32,000 nucleotides of DNA. Source: Candidatus Saccharimonadota bacterium (GTDB lineage: Bacteria; Patescibacteriota; Gracilibacteria; UBA1369; 2-02-FULL-48-14). Each line of letters begins with the position of its first letter. The first letter of the stretch is position 1. Of the stretch, positions 3,170 through 32,000 are shown in pieces. The stretch lies in contig OZ246396.1 of NCBI GenBank assembly GCA_965230905.1, positions 1,110,001 to 1,142,000 on the forward strand, in the 5' to 3' direction. Under the pieces are notes generated by a model. It saw only the letters and a list, made by a program, of their open reading frames with translations. It made no database searches and was not told where the DNA came from. A program made the position numbers and the translations under genes.

Positions 3170-3196
3170 TTTGACAGTTGTTAGGGTATTGACGGG

Positions 3197-3226
3197 TATA
3201 TAGCTATTTTCTTTCGCTTTTGTCAC
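3197..3226 (-). promoter_or_regulatory. Candidate sigma70-type promoter for the 2087-3169 gene
   Basis: The minus strand reads GTGACA, an 18-nt spacer, then TATATA. This sits about 28 nt upstream of the ATG at 3169. Confidence 0.3.
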
Positions 3227-3280
3227 CAGGAGTATCAAACAAAACGCCCAATATGTAAATAGCTATAGTGGAATTTAGTG

Positions 3281-3299
3281 TTGTCAAAAAAAATGACAA
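3281..3299. promoter_or_regulatory. Palindrome TTGTCA-A7-TGACAA (candidate operator or weak terminator)
   Basis: A perfect 6-bp inverted repeat directly abuts the stop codon (3300-3302) of the TrmB-like gene. The same TGTCAA/TTGACA half-sites recur at 4112-4147. Confidence 0.35.
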
Positions 3300-4088
3300 T
3301 CAATCGTCTTCGTCTACTAAGTATCTTAAGTCGTCCTTTGTTAGCAGATCCTTCTCCAAAAGCTTCGCATATTCAAAACCTAGATTGAATATCACTCTTT
3401 GAGTGTCTGCAATACTTTGATTTTGTATTATAACGCCCGTCTCATCTTGGTGTGAGATGATCGCTACTTTATCGTCGTAAATATTAATTTCATTCTTGAA
3501 AGGAAATTTGTCCGCCGGTATTAAGTGTACTTCTCTTAGTTCTTTCTCCCCCCTTTTTTTAAATTCAAGACTCCTTTTTTCATATGGGAATATACCTTTT
3601 AGAAAAACCTTATTCTTTACTTTTTTCTTAATATAAAGTGGGTAATAATCTTCTAGGAGTGTATGTACGGCAACGCTGATGTTTGCCCAACATAACAGAC
3701 CAGTGCTGGTTGTGAGTGTGTCTTCCATGATTTGGATTAACCCCTCTTTCCCTTCAAAAACGGACATTTGAGGTGTAGACGCATACTTTCTATTTAAATT
3801 ACTCAAGTCTGGCAGTGCTTCTTCTAACCATTTTAATTTTTGTCCCTGCTCTTGTACAAATGACTTGGGATTGAGTGCTCTAAAATATAGATTCCCCCCC
3901 CTTTTAACGTGACTAATTAATCCCTTTTTTTGTAATTGTTCTAATATAACATAAGTTGTTGGACGTTTTATGCCCGCTCTTTTGGAGATTACACTTGGAA
4001 GTGCCTCCTGTAGTTCAAGTAAAACTAAGTAAATTTTAGCTTCTTTTGGATTTAAGCCTTGATACTGCAATACTGTTTCAAGATTCAT
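3300..4088 (-). CDS. TrmB-family transcriptional regulator (paralog 1)
   Basis: The N-terminal wHTH LNPKEAKIYLVLLELQEALPSVISKRAGIKRPTTYVILEQLQKKGLISHV matches TrmB. The C-terminal half is highly similar to the ORF at 5160-5993 (QMSV[FY].G.EG...LREV[HY]LIP.DK[FY]PFKNEINIY[DN]DK...IIQNQ..AD.QR..FNLGFEYAK). Confidence 0.85.
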   Translation of the reverse strand: MNLETVLQYQGLNPKEAKIYLVLLELQEALPSVISKRAGIKRPTTYVILEQLQKKGLISHVKRGGNLYFRALNPKSFVQEQGQKLKWLEEALPDLSNLNRKYASTPQMSVFEGKEGLIQIMEDTLTTSTGLLCWANISVAVHTLLEDYYPLYIKKKVKNKVFLKGIFPYEKRSLEFKKRGEKELREVHLIPADKFPFKNEINIYDDKVAIISHQDETGVIIQNQSIADTQRVIFNLGFEYAKLLEKDLLTKDDLRYLVDEDD

Positions 4089-4141
4089 CGAGTGTTATTG
4101 TACCACCTAGATTGACCTTGTCACCCTTTTGTGTCAAAGTA

Positions 4142-4169
4142 TTGACAAAATCTCAATAAGAACTATATT
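4142..4169 (+). promoter_or_regulatory. Near-consensus sigma70 promoter for the 4182 gene, overlapped by a palindrome
   Basis: TTGACA (4142-4147), a 16-nt spacer, then TATATT (4164-4169), with the ATG at 4182. The -35 hexamer is the right arm of the inverted repeat TGTCAA-agta-TTGACA (4132-4147). A second repeat, TGAC-ctt-GTCA, lies at 4113-4123. Confidence 0.5.
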
Positions 4170-4181
4170 TAGTCTAAAATT

Positions 4182-5132
4182 ATGGGTAAGCCTGCGGCAA
4201 TACTAGAAAACGCTAGAACCTACATTATTTTGGGGAATGGAGGTCTCATTGATAAACGAGGGGGTGATCATGCGTGTGACGAGGAGGAAGATGAAGAAGA
4301 TGATGATTGGCTCCAGCTGCCAGATCAGGCAATCGAAGAATCAGGTGCAGTTCATAAGACAGTTTGTGAAGTAGATAGAGTCAAAAAAAGTGTATTATCG
4401 CTTGTTGATTGTGAAGCTGATATTCAACCACAGGCTATAAGTGCTGGTTTAGAGCTAGCTCATAAGATAAATTCCGCTAGAGGTCGGTTAGGTCAGGTAG
4501 TCGGTATGGGTACTTTATTTGATATACCCCGAGGATTTAATGAGATGGATGCTTTTGATCCTGAATTGCGTGACTTGGATACTTCAGATCCTCGCAGAAT
4601 AACGGTTAGACGTTTAGAAACAGGCCCAATTCCTACCGCTGATGACTTAGCGCCGACAATAAGAGATCAATATCTGGCAGCAATAAATAGTTTTAACCTG
4701 CAGCGAGGGAGTCAATTCCGATTAAGCGAAGTCGATGTTTTAACTGCCCAAAGAGCTAGAAGAGAGTTAGCTCGGATGGCAAGAGGTGCGGAAGGATACC
4801 CTAATATTTCTCAAGTCGATTCTAGTGAACGTGGTTTGATCTACGACCGTCAGGCTGGAAATGTTGTTTTGGTTCATTGTGCTGGGGTTTACGCTGCTAC
4901 CAATTGGTTTTTCCATAAAAAATCTGATTCCGCAGATATATATGCAGTTTGGTCTGTTGATAAAACTAGGGTGAAAGGAGGAAATCGTAAGGCAGGTTCT
5001 GATTTCGCGCGTAGACATCTTGGTGTGCACAAGGTTGTTGATAGGGTTTTATCCTCGTCTGTGATTGTATACGTGGGTGAAGATGAAAGCTTTCATGAAG
5101 GCGGTGAATCATTGTGGACAATGCCCAAGTGA
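4182..5132 (+). CDS. Hypothetical protein, 316 aa, with an acidic N-terminal stretch; no domain recognised
   Basis: Long ORF behind a strong promoter. No signal peptide or TM segment. It has an acidic run DEEEDEEDDD and an Arg-rich central helix (TAQRARRELARMARG). I recognise no family. Confidence 0.6.
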   Translation: MGKPAAILENARTYIILGNGGLIDKRGGDHACDEEEDEEDDDWLQLPDQAIEESGAVHKTVCEVDRVKKSVLSLVDCEADIQPQAISAGLELAHKINSARGRLGQVVGMGTLFDIPRGFNEMDAFDPELRDLDTSDPRRITVRRLETGPIPTADDLAPTIRDQYLAAINSFNLQRGSQFRLSEVDVLTAQRARRELARMARGAEGYPNISQVDSSERGLIYDRQAGNVVLVHCAGVYAATNWFFHKKSDSADIYAVWSVDKTRVKGGNRKAGSDFARRHLGVHKVVDRVLSSSVIVYVGEDESFHEGGESLWTMPK

Positions 5133-5159
5133 GGTTTAGGTGAACAGTTCAATTAGAGT

Positions 5160-5993
5160 CTACATTTTGGACGATAATTTTTCTCCTCTGAGATATCTGA
5201 TGTCACTTTGAGTTAAAAGATCTTTTTCAAAACTTTTTGCATACTCAAATCCTAAATTAAAAAGGGCCCTTTGACTGTCTGCCATGTCTTGGTTTTGGAT
5301 TATGACTCCAACACGATCTGTCAGTGAGATAATACTGGTTTTATCATTGTATATATTTATTTCATTTTTGAACGGATATTTATCCTGTGGGATTAGATAT
5401 ACCTCTCGAAGCTCTTTTTTTGAATTTTTCTTAAATTGAAGCCCACTCTTGTCGTAGGTGAATAGACATTTGGAATGAATTTTTCGTTCGATTTTTTTCT
5501 TTAAAAAAGTTGGGTGATATTTATTTAGTGCTGTGTCTGATGCCAAGCCTGTATTTGACCAGCAGTAGATTTCTCCTTTTGCAGACAGTGAATCCTCTAG
5601 TATGTGAATAATTCCTTCATCGCCCTTATAAACAGACATTTGAGGGGTTGTGGTGAAGTCTTTGTGTAGAAGATTGAGTTCAGGGATTACTTGTTCCAAA
5701 GAAGTGAGTTGTTCCTTAATTTCTTCGTATTTTTTGCGTTGATTGGCAATGAGGAAATCAGGTTTGCAGGATTGGAAGTAGAGGTGACCGCCTTTTTTGA
5801 TACTGGTGGCCAAACCTTTCTTTTGGAGTTGTTCTAAAATTAAATAGGCCGTGGAGCGTTTAACATTTGTTATGCGGGAGATGGTGCTTGGGAGGGCTTC
5901 GCTTAGTTCGAGTAAAGTCAGGTAAACGGCAGCTTCTTTTTCGGAGAAGCCGATCTTGTGAAGAGTCTTGAGGAGATCTTCTTTGTCAGTCAT
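5160..5993 (-). CDS. TrmB-family transcriptional regulator (paralog 2)
   Basis: The wHTH is FSEKEAAVYLTLLELSEALPSTISRITNVKRSTAYLILEQLQKKGL. It is collinear with paralog 1 over its full length. I chose the ATG at 5993 (MTDKEDLL) by alignment to paralog 1 and to avoid overlap with the upstream gene. Confidence 0.85.
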   Translation of the reverse strand: MTDKEDLLKTLHKIGFSEKEAAVYLTLLELSEALPSTISRITNVKRSTAYLILEQLQKKGLATSIKKGGHLYFQSCKPDFLIANQRKKYEEIKEQLTSLEQVIPELNLLHKDFTTTPQMSVYKGDEGIIHILEDSLSAKGEIYCWSNTGLASDTALNKYHPTFLKKKIERKIHSKCLFTYDKSGLQFKKNSKKELREVYLIPQDKYPFKNEINIYNDKTSIISLTDRVGVIIQNQDMADSQRALFNLGFEYAKSFEKDLLTQSDIRYLRGEKLSSKM

Positions 5994-6001
5994 AGCCGAC
6001 A

Positions 6002-12398: not shown

Positions 12399-12427
12399 TT
12401 GCAAAAAGGCGTGTTTTTTGATATAAT
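12399..12427 (+). promoter_or_regulatory. Near-consensus sigma70 promoter with extended -10
   Basis: TTGCAA (12399-12404), a 17-nt spacer ending in TGa, then TATAAT (12422-12427), 29 nt upstream of the ATG at 12456. Confidence 0.6.
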
Positions 12428-12455
12428 AATAAGATTAAATCAAAACAAAACGCGT

Positions 12456-15170
12456 ATGGCACCGCTACTGGCTAGTTTAACCGGATTCTGGGAAACCGTA
12501 AAAAGCATGGCTTTAGATGCGTATTTGTACATCGATGTGAACTGGGAGTGGATGATCTGGGGCCTTTCTATTTTGCTCGTGGTGAAATTGTTTGGGCCTT
12601 GGTTTGTGCGTGAACTTTATGAACGTTGGGTGGCTAGGCACCGTGTGTTTATTCAGATTACGATGCCGCGTGAAGAGTCCACCAAAGACAAAGAAAATGC
12701 GACGGAAAAGGACTTTAGAGAACGAATTGGAATCATGGAGCAGCTTTACCGGGCTGTGCATGAGATTCGTGAGCTTAATTTGAGCAACCGACTGATGGTT
12801 TGGCTCTTTCATCGTGATGCGGTTTCATTTGAAATTCATGCGCGACATGAGGACATCACATTTTTTGTGTCGGTGCATCCGTATTACTCTGGGATTTTGG
12901 AAAAACAGATCACGTCTTTTTATCCAAGTGCGTCCATTGAATTCATTCGTCCGGAGCCGATGCAGCCTAAGGAGCTTAAGAAGAAAAATACGGTAAAAGG
13001 ATACTATTTGTATTTGAAAAATTTGAACTGGTACCCGCTCAAGACCTATAAAACCATTGAAAACGATTCGCTCAATGATTTCACGAACGTGCTTTCTAAA
13101 TTGGAAGACAATGAAAAGGCAGTGATTCAAATCATGATCCGACCTCGTCACGAAAAATGGCAAAAGACCGCACGGGATTTTGCGACGAAGATGTTTAAGA
13201 ATGAGAAGCCCGAAAGCAAGAATCCGCTGCGAAAACTTCTTGGAATGCTAAGTTGGTTCTTTACGGCTACCGCCTTTGGTTATGATGCCGCTGAGAAAAA
13301 CAATCCTCCTCCTGGAGCCAAAAGTGGAGACAGCTATGTTCGTATGCTGCAGACCGATGAAGAACTCGCCAAGCGCATTGGTGAAAAAGCCAATCAAGTG
13401 GGGTTTGATACGGTGGTTCGTATTTTGGCTTCTTCCGATAAAGGGGAGAGTCAGTGCGACAATATTTTGAATGGGCTCTTTGTGGCCTTCAACGTGACTA
13501 AGGACGCGGCTTCGAACTGGTTTGAGGCACGACGTCTCATTCCTATCAACTTTATAAATACGCCTTTGCTCGTGGATTCTTTGGAAAGCAGAGCCTTTAC
13601 GTTCGGAGAAAAAGTTTCCGTACTCAATCCAGAGGAATTGGCTTCTATTTTCCATATTCCAAACAGCCGTTACAACTACACGCCGATTATTAAATGGCTT
13701 TCTTACAAAGTGGTTCCTGCGCCTACTGATTTGCCTACCGAGGGAATTTTGCTGGGAAACAATGTGTACCGTGGGGTCAAACGCGAGGTGCGTTTCAAAA
13801 AGAAAGACCGTACGCGTCACCACTATATTATTGGGCAAACCGGAACCGGGAAATCTGCCTACATCAGCTACATGGCGCGCCAGGACGTTATTAATGGAGA
13901 CGGAGTTTGTGTGATCGATCCGCATGGAGATTTGATTGAAGAAATTTTGCAGTTTATTCCTAAGGAGCGCGCGAAGGATGTTATTATTTTTGATCCCGCA
14001 GATACGGAGCGTCCGATGGGGCTCAACATGCTCGAGGCCAAGACGCCGGAACAGCAGGACATGGCGTCCAGCCAAGCCACGGAAATCTTTATTAAGATCT
14101 TCGGAGATGAAATTTTTGGACCCCGTATTCAGCATTATTTCCGAAACGCGTGTTTGACGCTGATGGAAGACCCTGATGAAGGCGCGACTTTGATTGATGT
14201 GCCTCGAATCTTTGTGGATGAGGAATTCATGCGATACAAGGTTTCTAAGGTTAAGAACCCCGTGGTGAAATCGTTCTGGGAACATGAATACGCCAACACC
14301 GGAGACCGCGAACGTCAGGAAATGATTCCGTATTTCTCGGCCAAGTTCGGTCCGTTTATTACGAACTCGATCATGCGTAACACCATTGGCCAGGCGAAAT
14401 CTGGGTTCAACATTCGCGAGATCATGGACAACAAAAAAATTCTTTTGGTGAACCTTTCTAAAGGTAAACTCGGGGGACTCAATACGCAGCTGCTGGGGCT
14501 GGTACTCGTGGCGCAAATTCAGCAAGCGGCCATGAGCCGTGTGGATATGCCGGAAGCCGACCGTAAGGATTTCTACCTTTATGTGGATGAGTTCCAAAAC
14601 TTTGCGACGGACACGTTCTGTTCGATTCTGTCTGAGGCCCGAAAATACAAACTCTGTTTGATCATGGCTCACCAATACATTGGTCAGCTCACGGTGACGA
14701 AGGGTGGTTCGACCAGCAGCCAGATCCGCGACGCCGTGTTCGGTAACGTGGGTACGCTGCAGTCGTTTAAAATTGGTGCGGAAGACGCCGAATACTTGGC
14801 AAAAGAATACGCGCCGGTGCTCACGGAGCAGGACGTGATTGGAATTGCGAATTATCGCGCGTACATGAAGCTCAATATCAATATGGCGACGTCACGGCCG
14901 TTCTCACTGGAAACCATTTGGGACATGGCGGCGGCAAACCCCAAAGTGCGCGACGTGGTGAAGCAGTATTCTCGAATGAAATACGGACGCAAAAAGCTCT
15001 TTGTAGAACAGGAAATTGGAGCGCGTATTGGAATTAGTGTTAATGATCTTGGCCCCGAGGTGAAAGCCGATTACACTGCTGAGGTCAAACCTGCTGCGCC
15101 AGCAGCACCTGCAGCACCTGCTGCTGCGCCTCAACCACCAACCACGCCTTCGCCCAATGGAGCAGCCTGA
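12456..15170 (+). CDS. Membrane-anchored VirD4/TraG/TraD-like (type IV coupling protein-like) P-loop ATPase with a large unassigned N-terminal domain
   Basis: An N-terminal TM helix (WEWMIWGLSILLVVKLFGPWFV) is followed by about 400 aa of unassigned sequence. Walker A is GQTGTGKS (13833-13856), followed by VCVIDPHGDL. Walker B is FYLYVDEFQNF (Asp-Glu at 14586-14591). Then comes ARKYKLCLIMAHQYIGQL, typical of the TraG/TraD C-terminal region. The tail is Ala/Pro-rich. I used the ATG at 12456 because the TTG at 12399 coincides with the promoter -35. Confidence 0.8.
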   Translation: MAPLLASLTGFWETVKSMALDAYLYIDVNWEWMIWGLSILLVVKLFGPWFVRELYERWVARHRVFIQITMPREESTKDKENATEKDFRERIGIMEQLYRAVHEIRELNLSNRLMVWLFHRDAVSFEIHARHEDITFFVSVHPYYSGILEKQITSFYPSASIEFIRPEPMQPKELKKKNTVKGYYLYLKNLNWYPLKTYKTIENDSLNDFTNVLSKLEDNEKAVIQIMIRPRHEKWQKTARDFATKMFKNEKPESKNPLRKLLGMLSWFFTATAFGYDAAEKNNPPPGAKSGDSYVRMLQTDEELAKRIGEKANQVGFDTVVRILASSDKGESQCDNILNGLFVAFNVTKDAASNWFEARRLIPINFINTPLLVDSLESRAFTFGEKVSVLNPEELASIFHIPNSRYNYTPIIKWLSYKVVPAPTDLPTEGILLGNNVYRGVKREVRFKKKDRTRHHYIIGQTGTGKSAYISYMARQDVINGDGVCVIDPHGDLIEEILQFIPKERAKDVIIFDPADTERPMGLNMLEAKTPEQQDMASSQATEIFIKIFGDEIFGPRIQHYFRNACLTLMEDPDEGATLIDVPRIFVDEEFMRYKVSKVKNPVVKSFWEHEYANTGDRERQEMIPYFSAKFGPFITNSIMRNTIGQAKSGFNIREIMDNKKILLVNLSKGKLGGLNTQLLGLVLVAQIQQAAMSRVDMPEADRKDFYLYVDEFQNFATDTFCSILSEARKYKLCLIMAHQYIGQLTVTKGGSTSSQIRDAVFGNVGTLQSFKIGAEDAEYLAKEYAPVLTEQDVIGIANYRAYMKLNINMATSRPFSLETIWDMAAANPKVRDVVKQYSRMKYGRKKLFVEQEIGARIGISVNDLGPEVKADYTAEVKPAAPAAPAAPAAAPQPPTTPSPNGAA

Positions 15171-18609: not shown

Positions 18610-18642
18610 ATTTTTACTCACGTCAAAAAATGGTTGCGGGGG
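18610..18642. repeat. Direct repeat B (overlaps the 3' end of tRNA-fMet)
   Basis: See repeat A. Positions 18631-18642 are the tRNA 3' acceptor strand plus CCA. Confidence 0.75.
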
Positions 18643-18705
18643 TTGGATTCGAACCAACGACCTCCGGGTTATGAGCCCGACGAGCTGCCACTGCTCTACC
18701 CCGCG
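18631..18705 (-). tRNA. Initiator tRNA-fMet (anticodon CAT), CCA encoded
   Basis: The reverse complement is CGCGGGGTAGAGCAGTGGCAGCTCGTCGGGCTCATAACCCGGAGGTCGTTGGTTCGAATCCAACCCCCGCAACCA. It has a C1:A72 mismatch, three consecutive G:C pairs closing the anticodon stem, and loop CUCAUAA. These are the bacterial initiator hallmarks. Confidence 0.95.
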
Positions 18706-19512: not shown

Positions 19513-19589
19513 TGGTGGCTGGAGGCAGATTTGAACTGCCGACCCCGGGCTTATGAGTCCCGTGCTCTAACCAACTGAGCTACCCAGCC
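19513..19589 (-). tRNA. tRNA with anticodon CAT, elongator Met-type (Ile2/lysidine type not excluded), CCA encoded
   Basis: The reverse complement is GGCTGGGTAGCTCAGTTGGTTAGAGCACGGGACTCATAAGCCCGGGGTCGGCAGTTCAAATCTGCCTCCAGCCACCA. It is a 77-nt cloverleaf. The 1:72 position is paired, so it is not an initiator. Confidence 0.9.
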
Positions 19590-22933: not shown

Positions 22934-25141
22934 TCAGAAAGTTTGGCGGACTGCACGCTTTCGCATTTGCAGGTAGGCGAGGGCTCCCAGGGCGCTCAGT
23001 ACAAAGAGGGCGGTTTGAGCGGGACCGGAGTCAGGGGTTGAAGCGATGTCATCCTCGTTGCCGGTGATGGCAGGCACCACGCTGGTGTCGTCGATCACGT
23101 CGATTTCCACCACTCGAGAAAGTTCAGGGATTCCCATAACCACGTCGCTGAGTTCGCCTTCGGTTCCTTCAATGTCCACGGCTGAAACCGCGAAGTAGTA
23201 ACGTTCTTCACCGCTCAGATCCACAATGGACCAGTTGGTGGAAGCGTCGTAGGTTTCTGAAATGGCGTAGAGAGATTCAGCAGAAGGTCCGTAGTACACA
23301 CGGTAGAACGCGAGAGTTTGAGTGCTTTCAGCGGGTTCCCAGCTGAGCAGAACGGTTTCGGGCGCGCTGCTGGCGGTGAGTCCGCTCACGGTTCCAATGG
23401 CAGGTTCGGGTTCTTCCACCACAACCGGTTCTTCTTCTATCACCACGGCTTCTCCAAGCGAAATGGTGAGTTGATCTTTGTATTCCACTTCATTTCCGAG
23501 AGTGTCCATAAGGATCACGTCCACGGTGTAATCACCGGCGGTTTCGGGCATGATGAGTTCCACTTCATATTTTCCAGAAGTGCTGCTTTCTTCCATGGTA
23601 TAAACTTCTTCTTGGAAGATCACAGAAGCTTCTTCAAGGTCACTTTCGCTGAGCACCGTAATAGTTACGCTGTCGCCGGGAACCAAGGCTTCTTCCGGTT
23701 CTGAACTGATTGAAATGAGTTCGGGAGCGGTGGTGTCGATGGTGATTTTTTCGCTATCGGACGTTTCGTGAACGGAAAGAATTTCTTCTTCGCCTTCTTC
23801 ACCGTCGCCCAGTTCCACGACATCTACATAGAGGTCATAGGTTCCGTCTGCAATGTCTTCCACCGTGTAAGTAAAGCTGTTGTCAAAATCCACGTCCACT
23901 CGGCCCACTTCGTCTTCACTCAGGTAAATAACGGCGGTGTATCCGTATTCGGCTTCTCCTTGTACTTCCACGCTGTCGGAAGAATAGCTTCCTTCGGCAG
24001 GGCTGATGAGGGTGAAGTCTCCGTCGCGTTCAAAATCGGTGCTTTCAAAGTCGCCGTCGTAGTCGACCCCACTGTCTTCTGTGGTGATGACTTCGGTAGT
24101 CGCTTCACCTTCTAAACTGAATTCATCAATGTCCGTAACGGTCACGGTTTGTTCCCCTGGAGTCACGAATTTAACGGAAAGGCTGAAGGTGTGTTCCCCT
24201 TGGTCGTCAGCAATGAAGCTGTAGTCGTTGGGAAGGGTGGCACTGTTGTCGCTGGAAGAAAAATGGATGGTTCCGGTGTAGTCGGGAACGGTGAACCCGT
24301 CGGCGTCCACGGCTTTAACCGTGAGGCTTTGAGAATCGCCCACTACCGCTTCCTCGTCCAAGCCGTCTAGAATAAAGGAATCCATTTCACCGCTTTCGGC
24401 GGAGAGGATCACGTTGGTGTTGTGGCCACCGGCGTCGGCGTAGCTGCCGGTACCAGAAAAGGCCAAACTGCTTTGGCTGGTCAAGGTTTTGTTCACACTG
24501 GAGTCAAACACAGTGAAGCTGTAAACTCCCTTGCTTTGGCTGGTGATGTAAAAGTTCATGTGGCCGTCTTCATCGGTTGCGAAGTCTGGGCTGTACACAG
24601 AAACGTTCGGGCTGCTCGGAGCCACTTTGAGCACGTGTCCGTCGATTTCGTTTCCGTAGCTGTCCAAAAGAGAAACCGTCATTTCGATGGTTTCGCCGAG
24701 GGCGGCGGATTGTTTATTGAAATCCACTTGAGACTTGGTTTCTGAAACGGTCCCTGGGAAAATTTCAAAGTTGCTCGACGTTCCATAGGCTTGATTGCTT
24801 CCAGCTTCACGGGCTGCGACTTCATAAAGTCCGGCGCTTCGGAGGTGGTAATCGGAAACCATGAGGCTGGCTTCTCCTTTTCCATTCGTTACGGTTTCCA
24901 AAATCAAAACGGTTCCATCGGGTTTTTGCAGAGCTACTTCGAGAGTTTTGTAGTTTTTACCTTGAAGGACGATTTCAGTAGAAAGACCGGCCAGGGTATC
25001 GGAAGCTTCCAAAACCGTAACGGTGCTGGTTTGCTTGGACCCGGCTTGAGTGATGAAAGGCGTCGACAGAAAAGCCAATACAAGGGCTCCTACCAAGAGG
25101 AAGCGAAATTTCTGTAATCCTTGAAGGAATAGAGGTGCCAT
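22934..25141 (-). CDS. Large acidic cell-surface protein with Ig-like (Big/invasin-type) and FN3-like repeats and a C-terminal TM anchor
   Basis: The signal peptide is FRFLLVGALVLAFLSTPFITQAG. Repeated beta-rich modules include GETIEMTVSLLDSYGNEIDGH and SQSLTVKAVDADGFTVPDYTG. An FN3-like segment reads LLSWEPAE....FYRVYYGPS......YYFAVSAVDIEGTEGE. The C-terminus is PDSGPAQTALFVLSALGALAYLQMRKR. Confidence 0.8.
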   Translation of the reverse strand: MAPLFLQGLQKFRFLLVGALVLAFLSTPFITQAGSKQTSTVTVLEASDTLAGLSTEIVLQGKNYKTLEVALQKPDGTVLILETVTNGKGEASLMVSDYHLRSAGLYEVAAREAGSNQAYGTSSNFEIFPGTVSETKSQVDFNKQSAALGETIEMTVSLLDSYGNEIDGHVLKVAPSSPNVSVYSPDFATDEDGHMNFYITSQSKGVYSFTVFDSSVNKTLTSQSSLAFSGTGSYADAGGHNTNVILSAESGEMDSFILDGLDEEAVVGDSQSLTVKAVDADGFTVPDYTGTIHFSSSDNSATLPNDYSFIADDQGEHTFSLSVKFVTPGEQTVTVTDIDEFSLEGEATTEVITTEDSGVDYDGDFESTDFERDGDFTLISPAEGSYSSDSVEVQGEAEYGYTAVIYLSEDEVGRVDVDFDNSFTYTVEDIADGTYDLYVDVVELGDGEEGEEEILSVHETSDSEKITIDTTAPELISISSEPEEALVPGDSVTITVLSESDLEEASVIFQEEVYTMEESSTSGKYEVELIMPETAGDYTVDVILMDTLGNEVEYKDQLTISLGEAVVIEEEPVVVEEPEPAIGTVSGLTASSAPETVLLSWEPAESTQTLAFYRVYYGPSAESLYAISETYDASTNWSIVDLSGEERYYFAVSAVDIEGTEGELSDVVMGIPELSRVVEIDVIDDTSVVPAITGNEDDIASTPDSGPAQTALFVLSALGALAYLQMRKRAVRQTF

Positions 25142-25240
25142 ACCGTGGTTTTATTTTTGTTTATCTCATAAGTATAGCAGATTTTGGGGTGGAGAACAAG
25201 ACAGGGGTTTGCTAGACTTAATCCAACTACCCTCAACGCC

Positions 25241-26731
25241 ATGTTCCAACGTTTCGCCCTCGCTCTGTTTTCTGCTGCTTTCTTGGTGCTTCCGGTGCAG
25301 GCCGAAGTGCTTTTGGAAGCGACGCCGGAAGGGATTGTGCCGGAAATTGAATCGCAAACGAGCATTGGGGTGAACCGCAGCATTATTTTTAATGCCTCGG
25401 GAACGAGCACAGCTTTTGAGAGTCCGCTGACTTATGAGTGGCAGTTTGGAGATGGAAACCGCCAAGAGGGTTTGGAGGTGGTGCACAGCTACGCCGAGCC
25501 GGGGGAGTACACAGTGGCTTTGACGGTGCGAGATTTTGCCGGACATTCAGCGACTGCTGAGCAGATGGTGTATGTGTTTAAAAAATCCTTTGTACTGGTG
25601 ACGAATGTGGAGGATGAGGAGGAGAAAATTCAAAGTTTAATTGAGGTGGCGCGTGAACAGGGCGTTTATATTGAGGTTTTGCAGACCTACACGTCGCGGT
25701 CGGGATTTTTGGAAGAGGAAGAATTGCGCCGCCAGCTTTTGGAGCACATTTCAGATCTGGAACCCGCTGAGGATATTGTGATTTACACTTACGGAAGCAG
25801 CGGGCTCACCGTGCTTTCGCAGCTGCAACAAAGCCTCAGTAACGAGACTTTTTTTGAAGGAAAAAACATTTATTTTGCTTCCGAGCACAATTTGGGAACG
25901 CTTAGAAACATCGCCAAGGGAGTTTATTCCAGCATTCACCCGCAGCAGATCATTTTGACGCGTTCGGAAGCCTTGTGGGTGTTGGTGGAATCGCCAGACA
26001 CGGAAAGCTTTATCCAGGTTTTGGAAGAACGCGGTATCGAGTATTTGGCGGTAGACGACCGTTTGAAACTCCGCCCCTGGAATTTGCTGTCCAGTTTGGT
26101 GAATGGCATGATCAGCCGTGGAGTGCCCAGCAGCACGGTGCTTTTGGTGCTCATGCTTCCCATCATCGCCACGGTGGTGGCCTTTATGAAACAAGTGGTT
26201 GGGCTCAACACCTTGGGGGTTTACACGCCTTCCATTCTGTCGCTGTCTTTCATTGCCCTGAACTTTTGGTACGGACTTTTGATCTTTGTGATTTTGTTTG
26301 CGGTGGCGACCTTGGTTCGTCACGCCTTGCACCATTATCGGCTGCTGTATATTCCGCGTATGGCTATTATTCTGACCTTTTCCAGTTTCGCTATTTTGCT
26401 GGTGCTGTTTTTGGGAACGCTGTTTGATCAACGCATCGATGAGCTCGCCATCTTCCCGATTTTGATCATGGCCACCATGGTGGAAAAATTCGTAACCATT
26501 CAAGGAGACAAGGGAATTAAAGGAGCCATGCACATTGGAGTGGAGGTGCTGGTGGTGGCGATGATTTGTTACTTTGTGGCGCAGTGGAATTTGCTCGAAG
26601 TCTTGGTCCTCGGTCACCCGGAAGTGGTGCTGATCTTCTTGGGTTTCAACTTTATTTTGGCGCGTTGGACAGGTCTTCGCATCACTGAGTACATTCGTTT
26701 CCGCGAGATTATCCGTCACATCGAAGAATAA
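25241..26731 (+). CDS. Secreted PKD-domain protein fused to a 7TM module (7TM_transglut-like), C-terminus -EE
   Basis: The signal peptide is MFQRFALALFSAAFLVLPVQAE. The PKD domain reads IIFNASGT....LTYEWQFGDGN......HSYAEPGEYTVALTVRDFAGH. About 170 aa of unassigned ectodomain follows. About seven hydrophobic helices end in HPEVVLIFLGFNFILARWTGLRITEYIRFREIIRHIEE. This resembles the 7TM domain normally fused to an inactive transglutaminase. I used the ATG at 25241. The track start at 25184 is a TTG. Confidence 0.8.
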   Translation: MFQRFALALFSAAFLVLPVQAEVLLEATPEGIVPEIESQTSIGVNRSIIFNASGTSTAFESPLTYEWQFGDGNRQEGLEVVHSYAEPGEYTVALTVRDFAGHSATAEQMVYVFKKSFVLVTNVEDEEEKIQSLIEVAREQGVYIEVLQTYTSRSGFLEEEELRRQLLEHISDLEPAEDIVIYTYGSSGLTVLSQLQQSLSNETFFEGKNIYFASEHNLGTLRNIAKGVYSSIHPQQIILTRSEALWVLVESPDTESFIQVLEERGIEYLAVDDRLKLRPWNLLSSLVNGMISRGVPSSTVLLVLMLPIIATVVAFMKQVVGLNTLGVYTPSILSLSFIALNFWYGLLIFVILFAVATLVRHALHHYRLLYIPRMAIILTFSSFAILLVLFLGTLFDQRIDELAIFPILIMATMVEKFVTIQGDKGIKGAMHIGVEVLVVAMICYFVAQWNLLEVLVLGHPEVVLIFLGFNFILARWTGLRITEYIRFREIIRHIEE

Positions 26732-29085
26732 TGTTTTTTAAGAATCCCGGCATTTTGGGGATGAACGCACGGAACCTGCTCTACATCCGTCCGTTCAACA
26801 AAAAAAAGGCCATCCGTTTGGCGGATGACAAGCTTAAAACAAAGCATTTTTTATCCGCACGCGGAATCCCGGTGCCTCGCTTGTACGCGGTGATTCGTAC
26901 GGCCGAGGAACTGGAAAAATTCAACTTCGCCAGTCTGCCCAAGAGTTTTGTGCTCAAGCCCAATTTGGGTTACGGCGGGGAAGGAATCATTCCCATTGTG
27001 GACACCAAGCATGAGCAATTTGTGAAAGGCAGTGGAAGCACCGTGAGCCGGGAAGAGCTCAAAGAACACATCAACGATATTTTAGAAGGGCGTTTCAGTA
27101 TTTCGGAATTGCAGGACACGGCTTTTTTTGAACAGCTCATCCTGTGTGATTCGCGGCTCTCCCAGTTTTGCTACAAGGGCATTCCCGATATTCGTATTGT
27201 GGTGCACAACCTCATTCCCGTGATGGCCATGCTGCGCTTGCCCACCCGCGAGTCGGACGGAAAGGCGAACCTGCACCAAGGCGCTGTTGGGGTGGGGGTG
27301 GACATTGCCAAGGGCACCTGCACCAATGTGATTTATAAAGGAAAGATTGTGGATGAGGTGCCGGGCGCCGGGCCTATTCGTGGCTTTGTGGTGCCGTATT
27401 GGGACGAACTTTTACTGATCGCTTCCCGCATTCAGCTGGCGACCAATTTGGGATATTGCGCGGTGGATCTTTCGCTGGATAATCACGCGGGACCCATGCT
27501 TTTGGAAATCAACGCGCGCGCGGGACTTGGCGTGCAAATCGCCAATTTGGCTCCGCTTCGTCGACGTTTGGAACGCATTCAAGGGGTGAAGGTGACCACG
27601 CCAGAAAAGGGTGTGCGCATTGCCCAAGAACTCTTTGGTCATAAGCTTAAAAAGGAAGAAAAAGAACTGCGTGAAGTGATTGGCGGCGAAGAAGAGGTGA
27701 GGATCATTGCTCCGAATGAAATGCGTCACATTTGGGGGTCTATAAACCCTTTGGTGGAAACCAGCATTCTAGACCGAAAATTGGCAGAAGACTTGGGCCT
27801 CGGCGAAAAATCGGAAGGAGGTCAGCTGAAAATTAAATTCTCACTCGCCAATAAACGGATCCAAACCTTGGTTTACACGGATGATTTTTCCAAAAAAGAC
27901 TACGACATGATCATTGGAAAACGTGATTTACAGGGCTTTTTGATCGATCCTATGAAAGGAAGAAACAAGGTGGTTAAATTGCCGACGCTGCTCAGTGGCA
28001 CGGAGGATTTCTTGCCTTACCATGAGCTCGATGCCCAGCTCACGTCCATTGACCGCAAGCTGCAACTGCTGTCCCATTTAAAGCCAGCCAATCTAAAAGA
28101 AGAGAAAGAAAAATTTCTGCAGGATCCTACGTACAATCCTTATTTCAAATACAAAGAGTTGACGTTTGATGCGCCCGCGCTTAAACAGCAGCTCAAAAAA
28201 ATGGAGGAACGGTTTGACGATTCGCCACTCTCTAAACTCTTTCAAAAGAAAGCTCAGGAGCATCATCAGAAAATTTTGCTGCTTGAATCACGCGGTGGGG
28301 ATCACTTCACGGAGCGAAGTTTTGAGCTCTATGGAAAACCCACGGAAGCTTTGCTGGAAGAAGCTAAAAAAAGATTGTCGACTCAGCCTAAAGAATTTGT
28401 GGAGGTCACTAAATACTACAGCGTGCCGGAAGCCATTTTGGAATTTGAGCGTGTGTTTCAGGAATATGGATTGCACCACTGGCGCATAAAAGTGAACCGT
28501 CACATGGTGAGTGCGTGCAGTGCCGGGAAGGAATCCACTTTGTTTATACGCGAGGGTATTAAATTTTCCGAAGAACGTTTGCGAATGGTGGTGGCTCATG
28601 AAATTGAGACGCACATACTCACGGCGGAGAACGGCAAGCAGCAGGGTTATGGCTTGTTCAATCGAGGTTTCGGAAACTTTTTGGAGACGCAGGAGGGCTT
28701 GGCTATTTGGAATCAGGAACAAATCTCCACGGTGGATAACGAAAAAAACTATCGCAGTGCGGCGCTCATTTTTGTGGTGGAGTACGCCCGCAAGCATGGC
28801 TTTGCGGAAACTTATGATTACTGCCTCAAACTGAGCATGACGCCGGATCGTGCGCTGCAAACCACGCTCAAAGTGAAACGTGGCTTGGGGGATACGTCTC
28901 AAGCGGGGGTCTTCACCAAGGATGCCTTGTACTTTTCCGGTTACCTCCAAGTGCAGAACTTTGTGGTGAACGGCGGAAATTTAAAAGACCTCTACTATGG
29001 CAAGTACAATTTGGACGACCTCGAGCTTATTAAAAAAATCCCCGATCTCAAGGAGCCGATGATTCTGCCACATTTCCTCAGCTAG
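26731..29085 (+). CDS. Tri-partite fusion: RimK-related ATP-grasp ligase, retropepsin-like (DUF785-type, apparently inactive) segment, and DUF1704 'QEGLA-motif' metallo-carboxypeptidase-like domain
   Basis: ATP-grasp motifs: GILGMNARNLLYIRPFN, FVLKPNLGYGGEGI, DIRIVVHN, NLHQGAVGVGVD, LLEINARAGLGVQ. Middle segment: EEEVRIIAP....IWGSINPLVETSIL......YDMIIGKRDLQGFLIDP. C-terminal domain: LLSHLKPANLKEEKEKF, AHEIETH (HExxxH, 28597-28614), ETQEGLAIWNQ (QEGLA at 28690-28704). The start codon overlaps the upstream stop (TAATG at 26729-26733). Confidence 0.8.
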   Translation: MFFKNPGILGMNARNLLYIRPFNKKKAIRLADDKLKTKHFLSARGIPVPRLYAVIRTAEELEKFNFASLPKSFVLKPNLGYGGEGIIPIVDTKHEQFVKGSGSTVSREELKEHINDILEGRFSISELQDTAFFEQLILCDSRLSQFCYKGIPDIRIVVHNLIPVMAMLRLPTRESDGKANLHQGAVGVGVDIAKGTCTNVIYKGKIVDEVPGAGPIRGFVVPYWDELLLIASRIQLATNLGYCAVDLSLDNHAGPMLLEINARAGLGVQIANLAPLRRRLERIQGVKVTTPEKGVRIAQELFGHKLKKEEKELREVIGGEEEVRIIAPNEMRHIWGSINPLVETSILDRKLAEDLGLGEKSEGGQLKIKFSLANKRIQTLVYTDDFSKKDYDMIIGKRDLQGFLIDPMKGRNKVVKLPTLLSGTEDFLPYHELDAQLTSIDRKLQLLSHLKPANLKEEKEKFLQDPTYNPYFKYKELTFDAPALKQQLKKMEERFDDSPLSKLFQKKAQEHHQKILLLESRGGDHFTERSFELYGKPTEALLEEAKKRLSTQPKEFVEVTKYYSVPEAILEFERVFQEYGLHHWRIKVNRHMVSACSAGKESTLFIREGIKFSEERLRMVVAHEIETHILTAENGKQQGYGLFNRGFGNFLETQEGLAIWNQEQISTVDNEKNYRSAALIFVVEYARKHGFAETYDYCLKLSMTPDRALQTTLKVKRGLGDTSQAGVFTKDALYFSGYLQVQNFVVNGGNLKDLYYGKYNLDDLELIKKIPDLKEPMILPHFLS

Positions 29086-30220
29086 CCTTCCACTCGGTGC
29101 TCAGGTCTTGATTCTCGATCTTTTCGCTGTGCTTCATAACAATCAGGGTCATGTCGTCGAGTTGGGCTTGGCCTTCCATGAAACGCCCCACGTCGATGGC
29201 AATTTTTTCAAACAAAGTATCGGTGCTTACTTCCGCTCCGGCGTGGGCTTTTAGAAAATCCTGCAAACGCGCAAGGCTATAGAGTTCGCCGGCCACGTTC
29301 TTGGCTTCCACAATTCCGTCTGAGTAGAGCACCACAAAGTCATCCTGCTCCAAAGTGATTTCGCTTTCTTGAATGAATTTTTCGATGTCGGGCAGCATTC
29401 CCACGGCCAATCCACCGGATTTGATGGCCTCAGTTTCGCCTTTATGGGTTTTCACATGGATTATGTATTCGTGACCGGCGCCCACCCATTTGAGTTTTCG
29501 CTCCGTCGGCACCCACTCCAGCAAAATCATGGTCATGAACATGCTGGGTTTTAAATGGGGTTTTAAGTAATGATTGAGCCGCGTCACCATGCCGCGCAGG
29601 GTGCTTTCCATCTCAATGAAAGTTTCCAAAAGCACATCCACCATTATCATCACAATTCCCGCGGGAATACCGTGCCCCGTGGAATCGCCCACGTACAGAA
29701 TAGTGCGACCGTCTTTGTTGAAGAAATCAAAAGTGTCTCCGCCAATTTCGGAGGCGGGACGGGTCTTGGCGGTGATTTTGAGGCCGGGAATCTGCGGCGC
29801 GGTTTTGGGGATGAGCATGCGCTGAATATCCTGGGCGCTGTCGAGCTCCTTTTGAATGCGCGCGTGGCTCTGCACTTTGCCGGAAATGCTTTCTAGATTG
29901 CGAGTCACTTCATTAAAAAAGTGAGCCAAGATTCCTATCTCGTTGGTTTTGGACGTGAGGATGCGGCGGTAGGGTTTTCCGGTCAAAAGGGCTTTCATTT
30001 CACGGATGATTTTTTGCAGGGGACGGTGGAGTTTGGAGTAAACCAGCGTGTAGCAAAGTAGCGTCAAAAAGCTCAGCACGACTACGTGAACCATCCAGGG
30101 TTCCAGGTCCGCGTAGGTATTCAAGGCCCAGAGCAAGCCGTAAGAAAGGCCTCCAGCAAAGAGGAAGGAAAGGAAGAGGGTGGCAAAAATGGAGCGGCGT
30201 AGAAAGGACATTGCGTCCAT
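29078..30220 (-). CDS. Membrane-bound HAMP-domain PP2C/SpoIIE-family serine phosphatase
   Basis: Two N-terminal TM helices are followed by a HAMP domain (HRPLQKIIREMKALLTGKPYRRI...NEIGILAHFFNEVTRNLESI). The SpoIIE/PP2C motifs are GGDTFDFF, YVGDSTGHGIPAG, LYSDGIVEA and DDMTLIVMK. Confidence 0.88.
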   Translation of the reverse strand: MDAMSFLRRSIFATLFLSFLFAGGLSYGLLWALNTYADLEPWMVHVVVLSFLTLLCYTLVYSKLHRPLQKIIREMKALLTGKPYRRILTSKTNEIGILAHFFNEVTRNLESISGKVQSHARIQKELDSAQDIQRMLIPKTAPQIPGLKITAKTRPASEIGGDTFDFFNKDGRTILYVGDSTGHGIPAGIVMIMVDVLLETFIEMESTLRGMVTRLNHYLKPHLKPSMFMTMILLEWVPTERKLKWVGAGHEYIIHVKTHKGETEAIKSGGLAVGMLPDIEKFIQESEITLEQDDFVVLYSDGIVEAKNVAGELYSLARLQDFLKAHAGAEVSTDTLFEKIAIDVGRFMEGQAQLDDMTLIVMKHSEKIENQDLSTEWKAS

Positions 30221-32000
30221 TATAATCTGTTCTTGTGCCTGGAGTCGAGTACTTTCTTAATACTGTGCACTTCGTGGTGCGCGTTGATTTTTTGGTAGAG
30301 CTGGTGAAGCAGTAGAAGCGTTTCGTGCGGCAATTCATGGAGCTTCTTGCCCTTTTCTTTGGACAGCAAATGGTTGATTTTATCGGCAATTTTTAGATCT
30401 AAGGTGGCTCGCAGCAATTCTCGGAATTGTTTTGGGAAGGTCGCCAGCAGGCTGAAGGTTTTGTTGAACCACTCGTGCGCCGGGTTGCTGAGCGCTTCCA
30501 CCAAAGGAGCGATGGTGCTGGCTTCTTCCATTTGTGCCAAGGCCAAGAGCGCGGTTTGCTTAACTTTTTCCGACGTATGGGTGAGGTGCCGCTTGAGCTC
30601 GTTTTTAAAGAAGGATTCTTTTATGGTTCCGCAGGCCTCGATCCCTTCACAGAGCACCGTTTCTTTAGGGCTGCTGAGCATTTGGCTCAGGTGGTGACGA
30701 AGTTCATTGCGAAGTGCTTTGAACTGCCAGAGGGCGATGATTGCAGCGGCTTTCACCTCCGGATCACGGTCGTCCAAATATTCTTCCAAATAGAATCGCA
30801 GATTGGAATCGTGGAAGAGGCGGAGCATGCGGATGAAGCGTGCCTTTTCTTTGGTTTCCTTTTGAATGGTTTCCATGAGGAATTCCGTCAGCGTCTCGGG
30901 AGCCAGGTTATAAAAAACATAAACCAATTCCTCTCGGATGGCTTCATTTTGTTCTTTGAGCAGGCGATCCTTCAAGCTTTCGATCACGCGGTAACGAGTG
31001 AAGGATTGTTCCATCAAGGTCTTTTTGAGTTTGTGGAAATGGCTGAGGGCTTGCGCAGCCGCCAGACGCAGGTGTTCGTTTTTGTGGCTGAGCATTTCGA
31101 GCACACTGGAAATGGATTCCGGATCCTCTTGTAGACCCAAGGTGCGCAAAATACTTTCCTTTAAAATCTCCGGTTCATTTTCCCGCTTCAGGATTTTTTG
31201 CAGAGCGCCGGTGGTTTTTTCGTGACCGTGCTGCGCCAAAATTTCAATGGCGTTCAAACGTGTGGGCAGGTCGAGTTTGTGGCTTAAATTGTGTTCGGAC
31301 ATCTGGGTATATTTTTTCCCCATTCCCCAGAGCAAGAAAGTCATCAAAATGCTCATTCCTATGAGTCCAAAGTTTAGAGCAAGGGTTTGTGGAGCTCCTT
31401 TCAAATTCACAGCCACCACAATCATGAGCAAGGTTCCGATCATGGCCCCCAGCGGTTTCATGATTCCTTGCATCCATTCTTTAACATCGCTTCGCACGTG
31501 ATGCGGGATTCCGTAGTACGAAGAATCGTAGGAATTTTTAAACAAAATACCGGTGAGCTCGTATCCTCCACGCGCCATGGCGGCACTGAAGAAGTTGAAA
31601 CGCAGGGTCATCCAAATTAGGTTGAAAAAAGTCACCAGCGGGTGCAGCAGCATGCTGGAGCTGACTCCCAAATAAGTCATGATGCGGCTGGCGAAAATCA
31701 GCTGCATGAAGAGAGCGGCGCTATTAAAAATCACGTGCAGCGTACCCAGTTTTTGTGCAATGAGGTTTTGATAATCTTCGTTCGTGCCTTCTTCGGCCAG
31801 AATCACTTCGCCGTCTTCATGGTGCACCAAGGTCGTTTCTTCCACAGAAAAAACGTCTTGTTGAATGGCTTTGGTGTACTGGAATTCCAAGACATTGATG
31901 ATGGCCCAGTGAAGCACCACCACCACCATTAAGGTTTTTAAGAAAGGAATTTTTTTAATCTCGGCAAAGTTTTCCCGGAGTTTTTTACTCTTCTTTTCTT
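30220..32000 (-). CDS. TLC/MFS-like permease (ATP:ADP antiporter-like) fused to a C-terminal HEAT-repeat domain; 5'-partial, running off the window
   Basis: The frame stays open to position 32000 upstream of the first Met in the track. KKSKKLRENFAEIKKIPFLKTLMVVVVLHWAIINVLEFQYTKAI resembles the central loop and TM7 of TLC-family carriers. About six TM helices follow. Then come HEAT-like repeats (LEMLSHKNEHLRLAAAQALSHF, LDDRDPEVKAAAIIALWQF, TSEKVKQTALLALAQM). The stop codon overlaps the phosphatase start (TAATG). Confidence 0.7.
   Translation of the reverse strand, partial: EKKSKKLRENFAEIKKIPFLKTLMVVVVLHWAIINVLEFQYTKAIQQDVFSVEETTLVHHEDGEVILAEEGTNEDYQNLIAQKLGTLHVIFNSAALFMQLIFASRIMTYLGVSSSMLLHPLVTFFNLIWMTLRFNFFSAAMARGGYELTGILFKNSYDSSYYGIPHHVRSDVKEWMQGIMKPLGAMIGTLLMIVVAVNLKGAPQTLALNFGLIGMSILMTFLLWGMGKKYTQMSEHNLSHKLDLPTRLNAIEILAQHGHEKTTGALQKILKRENEPEILKESILRTLGLQEDPESISSVLEMLSHKNEHLRLAAAQALSHFHKLKKTLMEQSFTRYRVIESLKDRLLKEQNEAIREELVYVFYNLAPETLTEFLMETIQKETKEKARFIRMLRLFHDSNLRFYLEEYLDDRDPEVKAAAIIALWQFKALRNELRHHLSQMLSSPKETVLCEGIEACGTIKESFFKNELKRHLTHTSEKVKQTALLALAQMEEASTIAPLVEALSNPAHEWFNKTFSLLATFPKQFRELLRATLDLKIADKINHLLSKEKGKKLHELPHETLLLLHQLYQKINAHHEVHSIKKVLDSRHKNRL

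Follow-up and report, generated by a model that had tools for sequence, protein, structure and literature searches.

What could an enzyme that joins a peptide ligase to a carboxypeptidase be doing directly beside the gene of a membrane protein? This question is raised by two overlapping open reading frames (ORFs) in a 32,000-nucleotide stretch of contig OZ246396.1 (assembly GCA_965230905.1, Candidatus Saccharimonadota bacterium, positions 1,110,001 to 1,142,000). This stretch is hereafter the window, and all positions refer to it. ORF1 (25241..26731, + strand) encodes a secreted protein of 496 residues, an RloB-like membrane partner with a PKD domain, an ectodomain and a seven-transmembrane (7TM) module. 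ORF2 (26731..29085, +) encodes a cytoplasmic three-domain enzyme of 784 residues: an ATP-grasp ligase, a retropepsin fold and a predicted metallocarboxypeptidase of the MATCAP family. We propose, with moderate confidence, that the two genes form a compact variant of the Rlo/Rim family, in which the ligase would extend an acidic C-terminus and the MATCAP domain would trim it, the acceptor being most plausibly the Glu-Glu (-EE) end of the 7TM partner.

An RloC-type ligase fused to a MATCAP domain

ORF1 and ORF2 are joined by a TAATG stop/start overlap (26729..26733, +) in which one base is shared, the junction reading GAA GAA TAATG. The original prediction, made from the letters of the window without database searches, had described a secreted PKD-7TM protein, this overlap and a 784-residue ORF. 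All three were recovered by ORF calls, Pfam and the junction itself, together with NCBIfam matches for both ORFs, hydropathy for ORF1 and a structure model for ORF2. The motifs that it had listed (GILGMNARN, KPNLGYGGEGI, NLHQGA, LLEINARAG, HEIETH and QEGLA) are all present in the translation. By hydropathy, ORF2 has no transmembrane helix.

The first domain of ORF2 (residues 4-305; 26740..27645, +) is an ATP-grasp ligase of the RloC/TIGR02291 type, as judged by PF14397, TIGR02291 and Foldseek. PF14397 (ATPgrasp_ST) matches residues 14-284 (7.5e-64, 216 bits for a Pfam cut-off of 31.4 bits). TIGR02291 is covered from position 8 to 316 of its 317 positions (2.1e-84), with 283.2 bits for a cut-off of 314.2 bits. 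The closest structures to the ligase part of the ORF2 model in Foldseek are RimK (7qys, 5zk6, 4iwx), ArgX/LysX and cyanophycin synthetase, with E-values around 1e-7. Residues K76, D246, E259, N261 and R263 are invariant among 58 homologues, and we take them to be the ATP/Mg ligands by analogy with RimK; on this analogy, the ATP/Mg residues of the ligase are intact. PF03133, the TTL family, gave no match to ORF2 at E<=0.1, hence the ligase is not of the TTL type.

The last domain (residues 434-783; 28030..29079, +) is a predicted MATCAP/DUF1704 (QEGLA) metallocarboxypeptidase, assigned by PF08014, TIGR02421 and Foldseek. PF08014 (MATCAP) matches residues 465-770 (1.4e-51, 176.1 bits for a Pfam cut-off of 27 bits), and TIGR02421 (QEGLA) gives 189.2 bits (1.3e-55) without reaching its equivalog cut-off of 338.65 bits. 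The full-length AlphaFold2 model of ORF2 has a mean predicted local distance difference test score (pLDDT) of 83.7 and a predicted template modelling score (pTM) of 0.50. Its best Foldseek match is human MATCAP (7z5g, E 4.9e-13, TMt 0.67), in agreement with a MATCAP fold. The ATP-grasp and DUF1704 domains that had been read from motifs are thus backed by profile matches in Pfam and NCBIfam and by structural matches to RimK and MATCAP. Public annotations already name both halves of the three-domain protein.

The metal-binding and catalytic motif HEIETH (HExxxH; residues 623-628; 28597..28614, +) has H623, E624 and H628 invariant in the 58 sequences, as are E655 and G656 of the QEGLA motif (residues 654-658; 28690..28704, +). 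The site of TMCP1/MATCAP is made of HExxxH plus the metal ligand of an EEG motif (PMC10499314), and by analogy E655 is probably the third metal ligand. HExxxH is kept in 72 of 76 MATCAP ORFs, the other four being frameshifted, truncated or fragmentary. At the other end of the protein, residues 1-29 (26731-26817) carry a motif, GILGMNARNLLYIRPFN, that is near-invariant, even though the monomer model gives it a pLDDT below 50. This stretch may serve for docking to the 7TM partner, or become ordered only with substrate bound.

The fusion and its membrane partner are conserved

One might suspect that an ORF of this length is an assembly or frameshift artefact joining separate genes. We found the three-domain protein as an uninterrupted ORF of about 785-800 residues in at least 120 clusters with 50-84% identity, and in about 60 independent metagenome-assembled genomes, including contigs above 1 Mb. 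The PKD-7TM protein was also found in at least 120 clusters, and ORF1 itself is identical to a protein (P0121) encoded on a 1.3-Mb contig named 'Patescibacteria group bacterium'. A scan of GTDB, with one genome per species, gave at least 586 confirmed relatives, of which the best 80 were annotated with hidden Markov models built from our own alignments. Among these 80, about 60 loci of Peribacteria, Peregrinibacteria and Gracilibacteria encode an ectodomain-7TM protein, with or without PKD, followed directly by an ATP-grasp+retropepsin+MATCAP enzyme. In two distant genomes the pair is adjacent and shares synteny with DivIC, Mur ligase, CysS, YggT and a divergent Ig-like surface protein. Since fusion and adjacency recur in about 60 independent assemblies, they are not produced by assembly, and we regard an artefact as practically negligible. 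The welding of ligase and peptidase next to a 7TM gene, first noted in this window, is hence a conserved trait.

The relationship with RimK raises a second possibility, that the enzyme modifies ribosomal protein S6 or another soluble protein and that the membrane protein is a mere neighbour. Fold and motifs are related to those of RimK, and there is a precedent in RimK/RimB, which add and remove Glu on the S6 tail (PMC11957791). However, ORF2 obtains only 48 bits with the RimK family profile, versus 283 bits with the RloC-type TIGR02291. The 7TM gene is adjacent to or overlaps the ligase gene in nearly every locus of the best 80, across phyla: it adjoins an RloC-type ATP-grasp gene in about 70 of these loci, and also in the rloABC locus of Legionella. 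In addition, rimB showed no genetic interaction with rlo (PMC12239564). Such a role of the enzyme, unconnected to its neighbour, is therefore very improbable.

The membrane partner ends in Glu-Glu

The 7TM_transglut-type module of ORF1 (residues 298-472; 26132..26656, +) was assigned by PF14402, by the 7TM part of NF052267 and by transmembrane prediction. PF14402 (7TM_transglut) matches residues 302-490 (8.6e-31, 107.7 bits for a Pfam cut-off of 25 bits), and hydropathy gives a signal peptide followed by about seven transmembrane helices. The module continues into a C-terminal segment (26657..26728, +), delimited by comparison of homologues, with the family-wide helix GLRxxEYxRFRE and a short tail. 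This helix (GLRxxExxRF) is kept across lineages, as in the RloB family. The last 25 residues or so read ...GLRITEYIRFREIIRHIEE, the final ones being ...RHIEE. From an ectodomain outside, seven helices and a positive-inside pattern, we infer that the C-terminus lies in the cytoplasm, on the same side as ORF2.

The two terminal Glu (GAA GAA; 26723..26728, +) are invariant and, from the survey of homologues and its controls, are a candidate acceptor or docking end. They are present in all of the 120 homologues of ORF1 (120/120), as EE, EEE or EEEE. The entropy is zero at positions -1 and -2 and around 2 bits at positions -3 to -7, and the codons vary synonymously, with GAA and GAG in all four combinations. 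Among 7TM genes paired with a MATCAP-fused enzyme, 62 of 66 have the -EE end, including code-25 loci of different gene order. It is found in none of the 10 7TM partners of enzymes without fused MATCAP, in none of 118 short 7TM-only relatives taken as negative control, and in neither of two proteobacterial RloB (Legionella and Aeromonas). The control consists of short 7TM proteins of the candidate phyla radiation because the search with the 7TM profile yielded only these; the two RloB sequences come from a plasmid collection. In the window, ORF1 is the sole ORF ending in EE, DE or ED among 195 six-frame ORFs.

In ribosomal protein S6, it is a Glu-Glu C-terminus that RimK lengthens. On alpha-tubulin, tubulin tyrosine ligase restores the tyrosine to the -GEE end, and MATCAP regenerates that end. 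Given these precedents, a cytoplasmic -EE encoded one base before a RimK-like ligase fused to MATCAP is an obvious candidate acceptor. The add/remove cycle on a C-terminal tail that the original prediction had imagined thus finds indirect support in the invariant end, with the 7TM protein itself now seen as the candidate acceptor. Our identification of this tail as the acceptor is tentative, and may well turn out to be wrong.

A retropepsin fold that has lost its active site

The middle of ORF2 (residues 315-405; 27673..27945, +) was identified by AlphaFold2, Foldseek and profile searches as a catalytically degenerate retropepsin-fold domain of the RloA/RimB/DUF785 kind. Direct comparison of the segment with Pfam gave no match at E<=10, PF05618 included, and its profile matched only Ddi1 retropepsin domains among PDB sequences, at a sub-threshold E-value of 0.16. 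As these searches fell short of the thresholds, the fold was settled by structure prediction. An AlphaFold2 model of residues 312-412, built on 53 sequences, has a pLDDT of 92.9. Foldseek matches it to RloA of P. fluorescens (9g58, E 1.3e-5, TMq 0.72), RloA2 of P. aeruginosa (9g59, TMq 0.76) and a Legionella DUF785 protein (2pma, TMq 0.72), with further matches to Ddi1 RVP domains and HIV protease. When the profile was used on 1.84 billion representative proteins, it retrieved 408, and the stand-alone ones that we tested exceed the PF05618 threshold. Homologous domains of relatives also pass its 27-bit cut-off, among them those of L074 (38.6 bits) and P0264 (37.1 bits). On the evidence of the models, the middle domain is a genuine RloA/RimB-type retropepsin fold. 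The DUF785/retropepsin-like segment of the original prediction therefore stands as a fold and fails as a Pfam sequence match, and the loss of its active site had been overlooked.

In the alignment of the 58 full-length homologues, N339-P340-L341 (27745..27753, +) take the place of the catalytic D-[TS]-G: where the window has S-I-N-P-L, 14 sequences have K-I-D-T-G or D-S-G. The D48N mutant of RloA is inactive (PMC12239564). As N339 is the same change, we read the retropepsin site of ORF2 as dead. Across architectures, all 12 ligase+retropepsin fusions that lack MATCAP retain D[TS]G (12/12), against 8/65 with MATCAP (Fisher p 3e-9, ignoring phylogeny). Where it was lost, many different triplets occupy its place, and on a neighbour-joining tree of the 58 fusions its state requires at least five changes. 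This pattern fits MATCAP assuming the peptidase role. We infer from these alignments that fusion to MATCAP made the aspartic activity dispensable, the fold remaining useful. A non-catalytic role would have a precedent in RimB, which binds RimK and stimulates its ATPase and its synthesis of poly-alpha-Glu (PMC11957791). Mapping the polyGlu-binding Arg/Lys of RloA onto the ORF2 domain by offset was unreliable.

A variant of the Rlo and Rim systems

The closest known system is rloABC of Pseudomonas aeruginosa. RloA is a secreted retropepsin that cleaves polyGlu, RloB a 7TM protein with an inactive transglutaminase, and RloC an ATP-grasp protein (PMC12239564). Hence, the proteobacterial cassette named in the original prediction, a RimK-related ligase with a 7TM protein fused to an inactive transglutaminase, does exist; it had been called a cassette of unassigned function and is now partly characterised. 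The module shares with rloABC an RloB-type 7TM protein beside an RloC-type (TIGR02291/PF14397) ATP-grasp ligase, plus a retropepsin of the RloA/RimB/DUF785 fold, with a functional link between these three components. It differs in that its retropepsin is dead (N for D) and forms an internal part of the cytoplasmic ligase protein, in the addition of MATCAP, and in the PKD and unassigned domains that stand in place of the inactive transglutaminase ectodomain. Its 7TM protein ends in -EE, unlike the two proteobacterial RloB, and its hosts are Peribacteria/Peregrinibacteria rather than Gammaproteobacteria.

With RimK/RimB, it shares an ATP-grasp enzyme of the alpha-L-glutamate ligase-like kind paired, and sometimes fused, with a retropepsin, and an S6-type Glu-Glu end on which residues would be added and removed; as in RimB, the retropepsin may also stimulate the ligase without catalysis. 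In contrast, its ligase is RloC-type, the order of ligase then retropepsin is the reverse of the RimBK hybrid known for that system (PMC11957791), and the partner is a membrane protein, not the ribosome. The intact trimming enzyme is here a predicted metallocarboxypeptidase instead of an aspartic endopeptidase. The eukaryotic parallel is the tubulin pair of TTL/TTLL and MATCAP/TMCP (KIAA0895L/KIAA0895; 7z5g), where MATCAP/TMCP take C-terminal Tyr and Glu off acidic tubulin tails and reduce the length of polyGlu chains (PMC10499314). The MATCAP fold, the HExxxH...E(E/Q)G site and the paired ATP-grasp enzyme are common to both, and the candidate acceptor of our module ends in -EE like detyrosinated alpha-tubulin. 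Unlike in the tubulin cycle, the ligase is not a TTL, ligase and peptidase form one polypeptide, and the candidate substrate is a 7TM protein; any likeness in mode of action is by analogy. As to the tubulin tail-code analogy of the original prediction, the ligase is of RloC/RimK rather than TTL type.

Stand-alone TIGR02421 QEGLA proteins have the same domain and motifs as the fused MATCAP of ORF2 and are linked to ATP-grasp genes in some genomes. An adjoining pair of ligase and separate QEGLA genes, as described in the original prediction, occurs in an operon of an uncultured Micavibrio and, judging from locus tags, in Photobacterium. There, the QEGLA gene adjoins a co-induced gene annotated as glutathione synthase GshB, which we took as an ATP-grasp gene. 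No separate QEGLA gene was seen beside the ligase in the rlo loci of Legionella and Aeromonas. By sequence, the module is a variant of the Rlo/Rim systems that falls outside every curated equivalog. Among the papers covered by our text search, none mentions both 'MATCAP' and 'ATP-grasp'.

The four components occur in many other combinations. Moranbacteria, Paceibacteria, Bdellovibrionales and Micavibrio have a short 7TM-only protein followed by ATP-grasp+retropepsin, code-25 Gracilibacteria have ATP-grasp+MATCAP with retropepsin absent, and the representative proteins include retropepsin+7TM and even retropepsin+7TM+ATP-grasp in one protein. The Micavibrio operon (L074, 4115-10487, +) encodes a 7TM protein, an ATPgrasp_ST-PF05618 fusion with intact DTG, a stand-alone MATCAP and, besides the fusion, three RimK-like ligases, a content that suggests peptide assembly in steps. 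Such recombining of ATP-grasp, retropepsin, MATCAP and 7TM argues that all four share one function.

Some loci deserve separate mention. In L064, L070, L080 and L081 the enzyme ORF is intact only if UGA is read as Gly (code 25), and in L080 and L081 the gene order is reversed, with the 7TM gene downstream and its product still ending in -EEE. Loci L054, L055 and L057 encode three-domain enzymes with intact DTG and 7TM partners ending in ...KSA or ...KSS; a second, stand-alone MATCAP gene lies on the opposite strand in L054 and L055. Unusual fusions (P0312, P0265, P0278, P0248 and P0281) include a 657-residue retropepsin+7TM+ATP-grasp protein, retropepsin(s)+7TM, and a class-I lysyl-tRNA synthetase joined to PF05618.

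Tail, free peptide or sensor

The main rival to a tail cycle is a free acidic peptide exported by the 7TM protein. The ATP-grasp domain would make free poly-alpha-glutamate or another short peptide, and the 7TM protein would hand it on to the cell surface or the envelope, where it would serve osmotic or cell-wall homeostasis. In the cytoplasm, chains would be kept short or the product recycled by MATCAP, and by the retropepsin where that is active, with -EE serving as dock or primer mimic. Genetics in Pseudomonas speak for it, since loss of rloB or rloC suppresses the loss of rloA genes (Lormand et al. 2025, PMC12239564): a deletion that rescues the loss of the periplasmic polyGlu-cleaving RloA implies a product, dependent on RloB and RloC, outside the cytoplasm. 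RimK is known to make free poly-alpha-Glu with RimB (PMC11957791), the four ATP-grasp genes and MATCAP of the Micavibrio operon suggest stepwise synthesis, and RVP+7TM fusions put the protease on the outer side of the membrane. The Photobacterium QEGLA gene and the ATP-grasp gene beside it respond to low salinity with a 27-38-fold induction, an observation that, like the hypo-osmotic phenotype of rlo mutants, fits tail and free peptide alike. Yet in our module the ligase shares one cytoplasmic protein with both peptidase domains, which would degrade the product before export. Export leaves unexplained why -EE is invariant only with fused MATCAP, and transport is no demonstrated activity of the 7TM module. 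We consider this explanation unlikely, if still the main one to compete with ours.

The outer part of ORF1 brings in another possibility, that of a sensor. The ATG start is at 25241, with an in-frame TTG further upstream at 25184. It opens a signal peptide (residues 1-25, ...LPVQA/EV; 25241..25315, +), recognised from hydropathy and direct reading of the sequence. A PKD domain follows (residues 34-109; 25340..25567, +; Pfam PKD_4, 5.5e-19), and then a conserved ectodomain without assigned fold (residues 113-295; 25577..26125, +), delimited by conservation among homologues. This ectodomain sits where RloB carries its inactive transglutaminase. It gave no match in a direct Pfam scan at E<=10, and its profile retrieved nothing credible from Pfam and PDB sequences, the matches to PPR and ANF_receptor being at noise level. 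NF052267 (RloB) matches ORF1 only at model positions 313-507 (2.3e-24, 86 bits for a cut-off of 900 bits), so that ORF1 has neither a full-length RloB-family match nor the inactive transglutaminase ectodomain. With only the 7TM part of NF052267 matching, the replacement of the usual transglutaminase ectodomain by PKD and an unassigned domain, as proposed from the window, is borne out.

In a sensor, the reading of the original prediction, the 7TM protein would perceive an external cue through PKD and ectodomain and switch the bound enzyme, which would act on the tail of another protein, and the -EE end would occupy the groove of MATCAP or of the dead retropepsin as tether or pseudo-substrate. 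The ectodomains indeed vary by lineage (PKD plus unassigned, inactive transglutaminase, retropepsin or none), with 7TM and C-terminal helix constant. A catalytically dead domain that binds acidic chains would be a good tether, and the conserved, low-confidence N-terminal motif of ORF2 could be the docking segment. However, there is no signalling output domain, and we found no other candidate substrate, ORF1 alone in the window having an acidic end of the kind sought. A pure sensor seems quite improbable, and the evidence favours the membrane protein as acceptor or dock at least as much as sensor.

Several points weigh against a cycle on the tail of the 7TM protein. From the Pseudomonas genetics, the product of RloB/RloC would reach the periplasm, which suggests export rather than a cytoplasmic tail (PMC12239564). 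The 7TM partners of four MATCAP-fused loci (L054, L055, L056 and L057) lack -EE, and the -EE tail is hence not obligatory for a fused MATCAP. In P0312, the C-terminus of the 7TM is joined to the ligase, leaving no free tail, so that acceptance by the tail is not the ancestral mechanism. The correlations of -EE and of D[TS]G with MATCAP are largely at the level of clades and uncorrected for phylogeny. All of TIGR02291, TIGR02421 and NF052267 score below their curated cut-offs, and the pTM of the full-length ORF2 model gives little confidence in the mutual placement of its domains.

If the tail cycle holds, the ATP-grasp ligase would extend an acidic C-terminus by alpha-linked residues, most likely Glu, and the MATCAP domain would take residues off the same end one by one, the two together setting the length of the tail. 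A non-catalytic role would account for the retention of the dead retropepsin, which might hold the acidic chain, mediate dimerisation, or activate the ligase in the way that RimB activates RimK. The state of the tail would couple the function of the membrane protein to ATP and amino-acid supply, or to a cue sensed by the ectodomain. In its strongest form, this would be a tail code of Peribacteria, Peregrinibacteria and Gracilibacteria, in which the ligase-carboxypeptidase would extend the genetically encoded -EE end of the 7TM protein and cut it back again, with tail length gating that protein; we put this forward as a possible but rather doubtful extension. By analogy, the two-gene module may do in bacteria what the add/remove cycle on tubulin tails does in eukaryotes.

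Other features of the window

The Ig-like/fn3 surface protein divergent from ORF1 (735 residues; 22934-25141, -) is in conserved synteny. Many of its orthologues end in [ST]GP[EAQ], a hydrophobic helix and a basic tail, like a cell-surface sorting signal. We considered its C-terminus as an alternative acceptor and rejected it, because its last residues are not conserved. On the other side (29078-31929, -), a SpoIIE/PP2C phosphatase with N-terminal transmembrane segments is convergent with ORF2 and overlaps its end by 8 nucleotides; it is followed by a HEAT-repeat protein. Both neighbours and a STAS protein are also present in locus L002.

Elsewhere, positions 3001-6000 have a GC content of 0.37-0.41, compared with about 0.49 in the rest of the window, and contain two TrmB-like regulators and an ORF of 316 residues without Pfam match; this region may be acquired DNA. 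A VirD4/TraG-like type IV coupling ATPase of 923 residues is encoded at 12399-15170 (+), and a gene of TrwB/TraG type is likewise found upstream in L002. The window also has two tRNA-Met (CAT) genes, some 800 nucleotides apart (18631-18705 and 19513-19589, -), and a tRNA-Leu (GAG) gene at 59-147. The gene rpsF is absent from the window. Promoter and terminator scans gave fewer sites than in shuffled sequences and were uninformative.

Implications

The Rlo system matters for osmotic tolerance, biofilm formation and beta-lactam tolerance in Pseudomonas. The module described here brings ligase, retropepsin, MATCAP and 7TM protein together at a single locus, and its invariant -EE end is a concrete candidate acceptor, open to a check by mass spectrometry. 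The aspartic site decayed repeatedly after fusion to MATCAP, which would be a clear case of one peptidase replacing another with the fold retained. If the proposed cycle is true, the enzyme would give prokaryotic MATCAP proteins their first defined substrate, and would point to where the substrate of the Pseudomonas Rlo system may lie. It would also set a precedent in prokaryotes for the tyrosination/glutamylation cycle of eukaryotic tubulin, and might even mark its evolutionary source. Its confirmation would thus extend reversible editing of C-terminal tails beyond eukaryotic tubulin and ribosomal S6, and give a first function to a bacterial MATCAP.

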